From a virus (taxonomy: Duplodnaviria > Heunggongvirae > Uroviricota > Caudoviricetes): a DNA stretch of 18,574 nucleotides. Shown here piece by piece: positions 1 through 705 of the stretch. Where the stretch lies: IMG/VR virus record IMGVR_UViG_2802429219_000011, positions 1 to 18,574 of that record, one strand, 5' to 3'. A program made the translations under genes and the position numbers. The notes under the pieces are model-generated. The model was given only the letters and a program-made list of their open reading frames with translations, was not told the DNA's origin and ran no database searches. Each line of letters begins with the position of its first letter. Within the stretch, counting starts at the first letter, position 1.

Positions 1-390
1 ATCGCGACACTGATGAAAGCGAAACAGGAAAACCGGCTGGAGCGTCAGCTACAGCAACTGAGTTATGCCCGGGTGTTGATCCTGGATGAAATAGGCTATC
101 TGCCGATGAACAGAGAGGAAGCCAGTCTGTTCTTCCGGCTACTGAACCGTCGATATGAAAAAGCGAGCATCATACTGACGTCAAACAAAGGGTTCGCAGA
201 CTGGGGAGAAATGTTCGGAGATCACGTGCTGGCAACAGCGATCCTGGATCGGCTGCTACATCACTCAACCACGCTGAATATCAAAGGAGAGAGTTACCGG
301 TTAAAAGAGAAACGTAAAGCTGGAGTGCTGACCAAAAACACAACGCCAATCAGTGATGATGAAATGGTGGAAAGCGGACAGCATCAGTAA
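1..390 (+). CDS. istB: IS21-family transposition helper ATPase IstB, C-terminal part (reading frame is open to the window edge, so the 5' end lies outside)
   Basis: Translation contains the Walker B region [10 protein letters not shown] and the C-terminal IstB pattern RRYEK-SxILTSN ... LDRLLHHS ... [15 protein letters not shown], which closely parallels IS21/IS100 IstB as I recall it. Stop at 388-390. Confidence 0.8.
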
Positions 391-451
391 CGAAAGTATT
401 TAGCGGGCATGAAAATGGCAAATAACGGTCAAACATCGTGGCGTTGACACA
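1..451 (+). mobile_element. Right-hand portion of an IS21-family insertion sequence; right terminus estimated only
   Basis: An istB 3' end must be followed by a short right inverted repeat. The reverse complement of ~437-451 reads TGTGTCAACGCCACG, which resembles a TG-initiated IS21-type terminus, but the exact boundary cannot be fixed from this window. Confidence 0.4.
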
Positions 452-705
452 GGTGCACCATCAAACTCTGTATGCTTTACCAGCCAGGATGCCAGAACCT
501 CTGCGCCCAGCACGCCGATAATGAACGACACCAGAAAATGCGCTGCCACACGCCAGGCTGAAAGCGCCTGCGGCATCGTTGCCACAAATAACGCCCCGGC
601 GAACGCACCAAACACAATCCCGAAATCCGTTCCGGTAAACAGCCCGAATACCGTCGCCCCGCCGAGCGCCGCAGCCGTGCCGGAACCGGATAAGGGTTCA
701 GACAT
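400..705 (-). CDS. Three-TM membrane protein, possibly a holin; its 3' end probably runs into IS-derived sequence
   Basis: ATG at 705-703 with AGGAG 8 nt upstream. Product MSEPLSGSGTAAALGGATVFGLF... has three hydrophobic segments and is ~100 aa, the size of a class I holin. It sits where a lysis cassette is expected downstream of Q/tRNAs. The reading frame continues into the region I estimate to be IS DNA. Confidence 0.4.
   Translation of the reverse strand: MSEPLSGSGTAAALGGATVFGLFTGTDFGIVFGAFAGALFVATMPQALSAWRVAAHFLVSFIIGVLGAEVLASWLVKHTEFDGAPVSTPRCLTVICHFHAR

Follow-up and report, generated by a model that had tools for sequence, protein, structure and literature searches.

The window (the whole stretch of DNA that was analysed, 18,574 nt) is identical to contig PTSA01000008.1 (GCA_002965785.1), beginning 2 nt in from the contig's end. 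It runs from the integrase gene to the first lysis gene of a prophage, and the draft contig breaks within a copy of IS21. The following features lie at this end of the window.

1..449, plus strand: right-hand 449 bp of IS21, with 0–1 nt differences from the annotated copies L003–L005; the element continues past the contig end.
1..390, plus strand: 3′ part of istB (IS21 helper AAA+ ATPase), the last 129 codons with the TAA stop at 388–390, assigned by PF01695 and IstB identity.
391..449, plus strand: right terminal region of IS21 with the right inverted repeat, ending ...TTGACA with CA at 448–449, placed by a four-copy alignment.
450..453: CAGG, the presumed right-hand copy of a 4-bp target-site duplication, by analogy with other copies.
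400..705, minus strand: truncated holin ORF, a chimera of 101 codons, with its ATG at 705 and its stop at 402–400, assigned by PF16931, phrog_198 and alignment with the 130-aa homologue.
712..717, minus strand: good Shine–Dalgarno sequence AGGAGA in front of the holin gene, recognised by inspection.
730..745, minus strand: predicted terminator-like element, a GC-rich hairpin with a T-run picked up by a consensus scan.

The open frame of the istB fragment is already in progress at window position 1. The fragment matches PF01695 (IstB_IS21) with E=1.3e-42 over model positions 134–238 of 238, which makes it the C-terminal half of an IstB, and all 129 of its residues coincide with the C-terminal residues of the annotated IstB WP_000544828.1. 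The right side of the element therefore carries a gene for an IstB-type AAA+ helper ATPase. At the nucleotide level, positions 1–449 show no difference from the IS21 copy L005 (0 of 449) and 1 nt of difference from L003 and L004; identity of 99.8–100% over 449 nt excludes a chance resemblance. A megablast search of 5,426 complete E. coli genomes returned thousands of copies annotated as ‘IS21-like element IS21 family helper ATPase IstB’, many of them with at least 99% identity. We identify the element as IS21 proper and not as a new relative.

The end of the element was mapped by aligning four IS21 copies with different flanks: one inserted in yafV (L003), two plasmid copies (L004 and L005) and one with an adjoining IS256 remnant (L006). 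Both istA and istB lie within an element of 2130–2131 bp in all four. These reference copies start TGTCAGCGCCAGTGAT... and finish ...ATCGTGGCGTTGACA; the left end of the full copies is TGTCAGCGCC, and a longer left-end stretch reads TGTCAGCGCCAGTGATATAAG. The right end seen in the window, ...GGCGTTGACA at 440–449, is shared by all four copies (GTTGACA), which diverge directly after the terminal A at window position 449. Set against the left end of the full copies, this right end yields terminal inverted repeats of the form 5′-TG...CA-3′, with the left repeat TGTCAGCGCCA and the right repeat TGTCAACGCCA matching at 10 of 11 positions. Direct repeats of 4 bp (AGGG, ACAG and AGAA) flank three of the four reference copies. 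The divergence after A449, together with the 4-bp repeats in the sister copies, fixes the right end at 449 and means that a 4-bp duplication is to be expected. The uninterrupted target in the related prophage L001 reads GTCGA-CAGG-TGCACC.

The right terminal inverted repeat of IS21 is described as carrying the terminal CA and a −35 box (PMC10122671). TTGACA at 444–449 is an outward-facing −35 box, directed antisense to both the truncated holin gene and the TerB gene. A hybrid outward promoter built on this box was considered as a candidate, and a scan gave no acceptable −10 element, leaving such a promoter unsupported.

Facing the element is the minus-strand ORF, which matches PF16931 (Phage_holin_8) with E=1.2e-16 and 61.4 bits, above the curated cut-off of 26.4, over model positions 1–79 of 121. 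It also matches phrog_198, ‘holin’ (lysis), with E=1.7e-30 over positions 1–82 of 125. The intact homologue in L001 covers PF16931 positions 1–121 of 121, and the window ORF is not full-length, lacking the last hydrophobic segment and the C-terminal tail. By these profile matches, the window holin is a truncated member of the Phage_holin_8 family. Its codons 1–85 are native (705..450). Codon 86 spans the junction, with position 450 native and positions 449–448 contributed by the IS, and Val is retained there by chance. Codons 87–101 (STPRCLTVICHFHAR, 449..403) and the stop are IS21 right-end sequence and replace residues 87–130 of the intact protein. The lost portion, roughly the last third of the gene, comprises the final clear hydrophobic segment (about residues 88–105, ALCAVLVSVVSVKILSFI) and the C-terminal tail, and the IS-encoded 15-residue tail is not hydrophobic. 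In the hydropathy profile the intact protein peaks at about residues 88–100, a peak that the truncated protein lacks. Judging from this profile and from general holin biology, the 101-aa product is putatively non-functional as a hole-former.

This architecture agrees closely with the original prediction, made from the letters of the window alone, that an IS21-family element abuts and probably truncates a holin-like membrane-protein gene. The istB stop at 390 and the end of the minus-strand gene, predicted to fall within about 10 nt of each other, are separated by 9 nt between the two stops, and the predicted 15–17 IS-derived codons correspond to codons 87–101 plus the stop. Two of the checks proposed at the time, alignment to IS21 termini and comparison with uninterrupted homologues, gave the same picture: the right end falls at A449 in the four-copy alignment, and the intact gene encodes 130 aa, of which residues 1–86 are kept and 87–130 lost here. 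The arrangement named as contradicting the prediction, an IS end upstream of 400 beside an intact gene, is not what was found, as the end lies at 449 within the gene.

Just upstream of the holin RBS is the hairpin GGGCCGCTGGTGGCCC, which is kept in the orthologous locus and present in a published primer. As a terminator-like structure, the hairpin at 730..745 would need Q antitermination for read-through. An Rfam scan found no structured RNA in 1–705, and its only matches elsewhere in the window were sok and two tRNAs. A separate observation concerns the 90%-identity protein cluster to which the chimeric holin belongs: its representative is a 178-aa tail fibre assembly/DUF4376 protein with no visible holin similarity, which suggests either a quirk of the clustering or linkage via fusion proteins.

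In complete E. coli genomes, prophages without the interruption align with the window at 94–97% identity from 449/452 onward, homology to them beginning at 449/450, and the gene is annotated there as ‘putative holin’. The closest relative, a prophage of E. coli AJ1 (L001), has a holin of 130 codons, and the nearest intact holin region among the complete E. coli genomes is 96.9% identical. Gene order in L001, phiP27 (L28, L29, L30) and Rac-SA53 (holin1, holin, endolysin) is Q, tRNAs, moron slot, holin 1, holin 2, endolysin (M15), and then terminase and morphogenesis genes. In the window, Q is found at 3217..2522, upstream of the holin, and the downstream side ends in the IS and the contig end. 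By comparison with these relatives, the lysis-cassette gene hit by IS21 is the first one. Holin 2 in the intact cassettes belongs to PF05449 (Phage_holin_3_7) and overlaps holin 1 by 11 nt; its start in L001 (L001:3865-3875, minus strand) is preceded by GGAGGAGG and falls on the final codons of holin 1. Because the 3′ end of holin 1, past the insertion point, contains both this RBS and the holin 2 ATG, holin 2 would retain translation signals of its own across the IS.

Genetic work in porcine STEC has addressed the intact 130-aa orthologue (WP_032083190). Deletion of its gene abolished enrofloxacin-induced release of Stx2e, and supply from a plasmid restored it (PMC12571312). Among strains with low extracellular Stx2e, the majority had a partial-holin genomic context (PMC12571312). 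The published primers match the RBS and start of the window holin, with AGGAGA lying within KanR_FW, the primer for the orthologous holin deletion (PMC12571312).

Searches for the disrupted allele point to a rare event. An exact look-up among indexed assemblies found the 101-aa chimeric protein on one contig only, PTSA01000008.1. The IS21–holin junction was not found in the 5,426 complete E. coli genomes, and the exact right-junction pattern was found neither in one genome each of 185,579 species nor in metagenome contigs. For a simple insertion, the left junction is expected to read ...GTCGACAGG followed directly by TGTCAGCGCC..., with TCGACGCATTGTGTGCAGTACTGG as the 3′ remainder of the holin gene. 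The pattern of CAGG joined to the IS21 left end was not found in one genome each of 185,579 species. A protein search with the predicted left-junction ORF, in which MANYRLISLALT from an in-frame ATG of IS21 precedes the holin C-terminus, gave only ordinary N-truncated or partial holins, the IS-derived head being present in none of them; so short an ORF may never have been called. An IS-free sister prophage was sought in the 5,426 complete E. coli genomes, where the best match covered 68% with about 92% identity, and no close empty-site allele was found. The disrupted state is thus not conserved across strains, being confined to one contig and absent from 5,426 complete genomes. A protein limited to one contig, a junction absent from complete genomes and an IS identical to circulating copies together make the event look recent and strain-private, and we infer that the insertion is both.

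The original prediction had gone on to treat the absence of endolysin and structural genes after the junction as evidence that the prophage is defective for lysis. This absence is uninformative: only 2 nt separate the start of the window from the contig end, which lies in the IS. With the contig broken in IS21, the lack of these genes in the window is an assembly boundary and not a biological absence.

On the visible side, the early region contains full-length-looking genes for an integrase (complete at its N-terminus), an HTH repressor, YdaS, YdaT, DnaT-like and P-like replication proteins, RusA and Q, and this part of the prophage looks uneroded by the appearance of its genes. Between Q and the lysis cassette, window positions 798–2196 on the minus strand form a moron slot. 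The slot and the cargo of the early region comprise the following.

2196..2043, minus strand: tRNA-Thr(tgt) and tRNA-Gly(tcc), in the moron slot.
1372..947, minus strand: TerB-family gene, phrog_632 ‘tellurite resistance’.
950..798, minus strand: DUF3927/TciB-like gene of 50 aa, in the moron slot.
6374-6698, minus strand: hok with sok RNA (Rfam, 109.5 bits).
6145..5428, minus strand: hicA and hicB, a toxin–antitoxin module.
11747-12225, plus strand: PaaA2-ParE, a toxin–antitoxin module.
14210-14386, plus strand: DicB-like ORF, 91.5% identical to K-12 DicB.
14679-17153, plus strand: 824-aa protein with a C-terminal Rv2179c-like 3′-5′ exonuclease domain.
17444-18574, plus strand: lambda-type integrase (Arm-binding and catalytic domains), extending past the window end.

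Three toxin–antitoxin modules (hok/sok, hicAB and PaaA2-ParE) are thus present in the early region. The original prediction had named TerB, hicAB, hok, parE and dicB as retained cargo that would be selectable host functions in a domesticated prophage. The identification of these genes stands; TerB, HicAB, Hok, ParE and DicB are ordinary lambdoid morons and toxin–antitoxin pairs, and their presence is no evidence of selection after a lysis defect. Domestication itself is likewise unsupported, with the chimera on a single contig, the junction in none of the 5,426 complete genomes and the IS tail identical to other copies.

A curious parallel is found in two other contig ends, L009:10001-10257 and L010:10001-10257 (GCA_050555225.1 and GCA_012251565.1), which belong to another E. 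coli lambdoid prophage with a DUF1133-type Q and the same TerB–DUF3927–holin module. Both contigs stop at ...GCGCCTGT, nucleotide 257 of the holin gene, which is the exact IS21 join point of the window (compare 705..449), and their holin allele differs from that of the window at 5 of 86 residues. The loop codon 85/86, with its target CAGG, could on this basis be imagined as a recurrent IS21 insertion point at which the N-terminal fragment is kept as a dominant-negative antiholin against the several related holins shared among E. coli prophages. We regard this as very improbable. The conserved 3′ module starts at D87, which makes a mosaic or repeat boundary a likelier cause of the L009 and L010 ends than IS insertion at the same site. 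A synthetic junction of IS21 with the L009 allele had no spanning match in complete genomes, and no complete genome of the L009/L010 prophage lineage was found.

Taking the evidence as a whole, we conclude that IS21 very probably transposed into codon 85/86 of holin 1 of a lambdoid E. coli prophage, leaving the 101-aa chimera. From the structure of the end and the sister copies, IstA and IstB would have inserted IS21 at the target CAGG (450–453) in a simple insertion with a 4-bp duplication, as opposed to an IS-bounded deletion or inversion; istAB is oriented so as to converge on the holin gene. The chimera, without its last membrane segment and tail, would be expected to have lost holin-1-dependent lysis or release. 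Should the far side be intact, polymerase modified by Q is expected to read through the IS and holin 2 could be translated from its own RBS, in which case lysis may be impaired and not abolished. Since the junction lies just 449 nt inside the end of a contig in a draft assembly, one could suspect that assembly wrongly linked an IS21 end to a prophage contig. Against this, the sequence switches precisely at the terminal CA of IS21, and a mis-join is not expected to respect a transposon end, so we give this explanation almost no credence.

What the insertion meant for the prophage depends on the sequence beyond the element. The IS could mark the edge of a prophage remnant, its late genes (holin 2, endolysin, terminase, head and tail) gone, that is lysis-defective and domesticated with its cargo under selection. 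Holin 1 is indeed truncated, and IS elements frequently bound deletions in E. coli prophages. Many prophages of porcine STEC with the same phiP27-type cassette are without an endolysin (PMC12571312). Yet the contig stops in the IS, so the far side gives no information; an insertion known from one contig, with an IS identical to other copies, provides no time depth for domestication; and the early region shows no visible decay. We therefore consider a remnant unlikely. The opposite view, in which a simple insertion left the late region complete and lysis proceeds via holin 2 and the endolysin by Q read-through of the 2.1-kb IS, with timing or efficiency alone altered, draws on the two holin-family genes of intact cassettes, on the holin 2 RBS and ATG beyond the insertion point, and on the resistance of Q antitermination to terminators established in lambda. 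It is a tentative possibility at best, given that the 130-aa protein by itself mattered for toxin release and that the visible sequence stops within the IS. Among the possible outcomes, then, loss of the late region seems improbable to us and a late region that is present with lysis still possible somewhat doubtful; the remaining weight falls on a complete but lysis-impaired prophage.

For annotation, insertion of IS21 into holin 1 means that 705..400 should be listed as a pseudogene, a phiP27-type holin gene disrupted by an IS. Present evidence gives no grounds for labelling the prophage defective or domesticated. The feature has little importance beyond annotating the strain. As the intact orthologue is linked to antibiotic-induced Stx2e release, holin knock-outs could affect the release of prophage-encoded products; the slot of the window prophage holds TerB and DUF3927 genes, not a toxin.

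The feature is already known in kind: it is an ordinary IS-in-prophage event affecting a known holin family with a characterised orthologue. Insertions of IS elements in the late genes of lambdoid prophages are commonplace in E. coli. The nearest parallels, we presume, are the IS629-hit Sp prophages of O157 Sakai and the cryptic prophages of K-12, in which a resident IS lies in a lambdoid late or lysis gene, as here. In those prophages both junctions are documented and deletions are often present, whereas one junction is visible here. Over its last 449 nt the element has no visible difference from IS21 proper (0–1 nt off E. coli chromosomal and plasmid copies), with the same IstB C-terminus and the same TTGACA/CA right end; the left 1.7 kb, with istA and the left end, lies off the contig, and istA is present in the near-identical copies L003–L006. 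The holin, for its part, is about 94–99% identical over residues 1–86 to phiP27 L28, Rac-SA53 ‘holin1’ and WP_032083190 (PF16931, phrog_198), and it shares with phiP27 L28 and Rac-SA53 holin1 the same RBS and the same place downstream of Q and the moron slot. It differs from the phiP27 and Rac-SA53 proteins in that residues 87–130 are missing and a 15-residue IS-encoded tail stands in their place. The moron slot differs as well, holding TerB-family and DUF3927 genes in the window, stx2e in phiP27 and the pertussis-like toxin genes eplBA in Rac-SA53.
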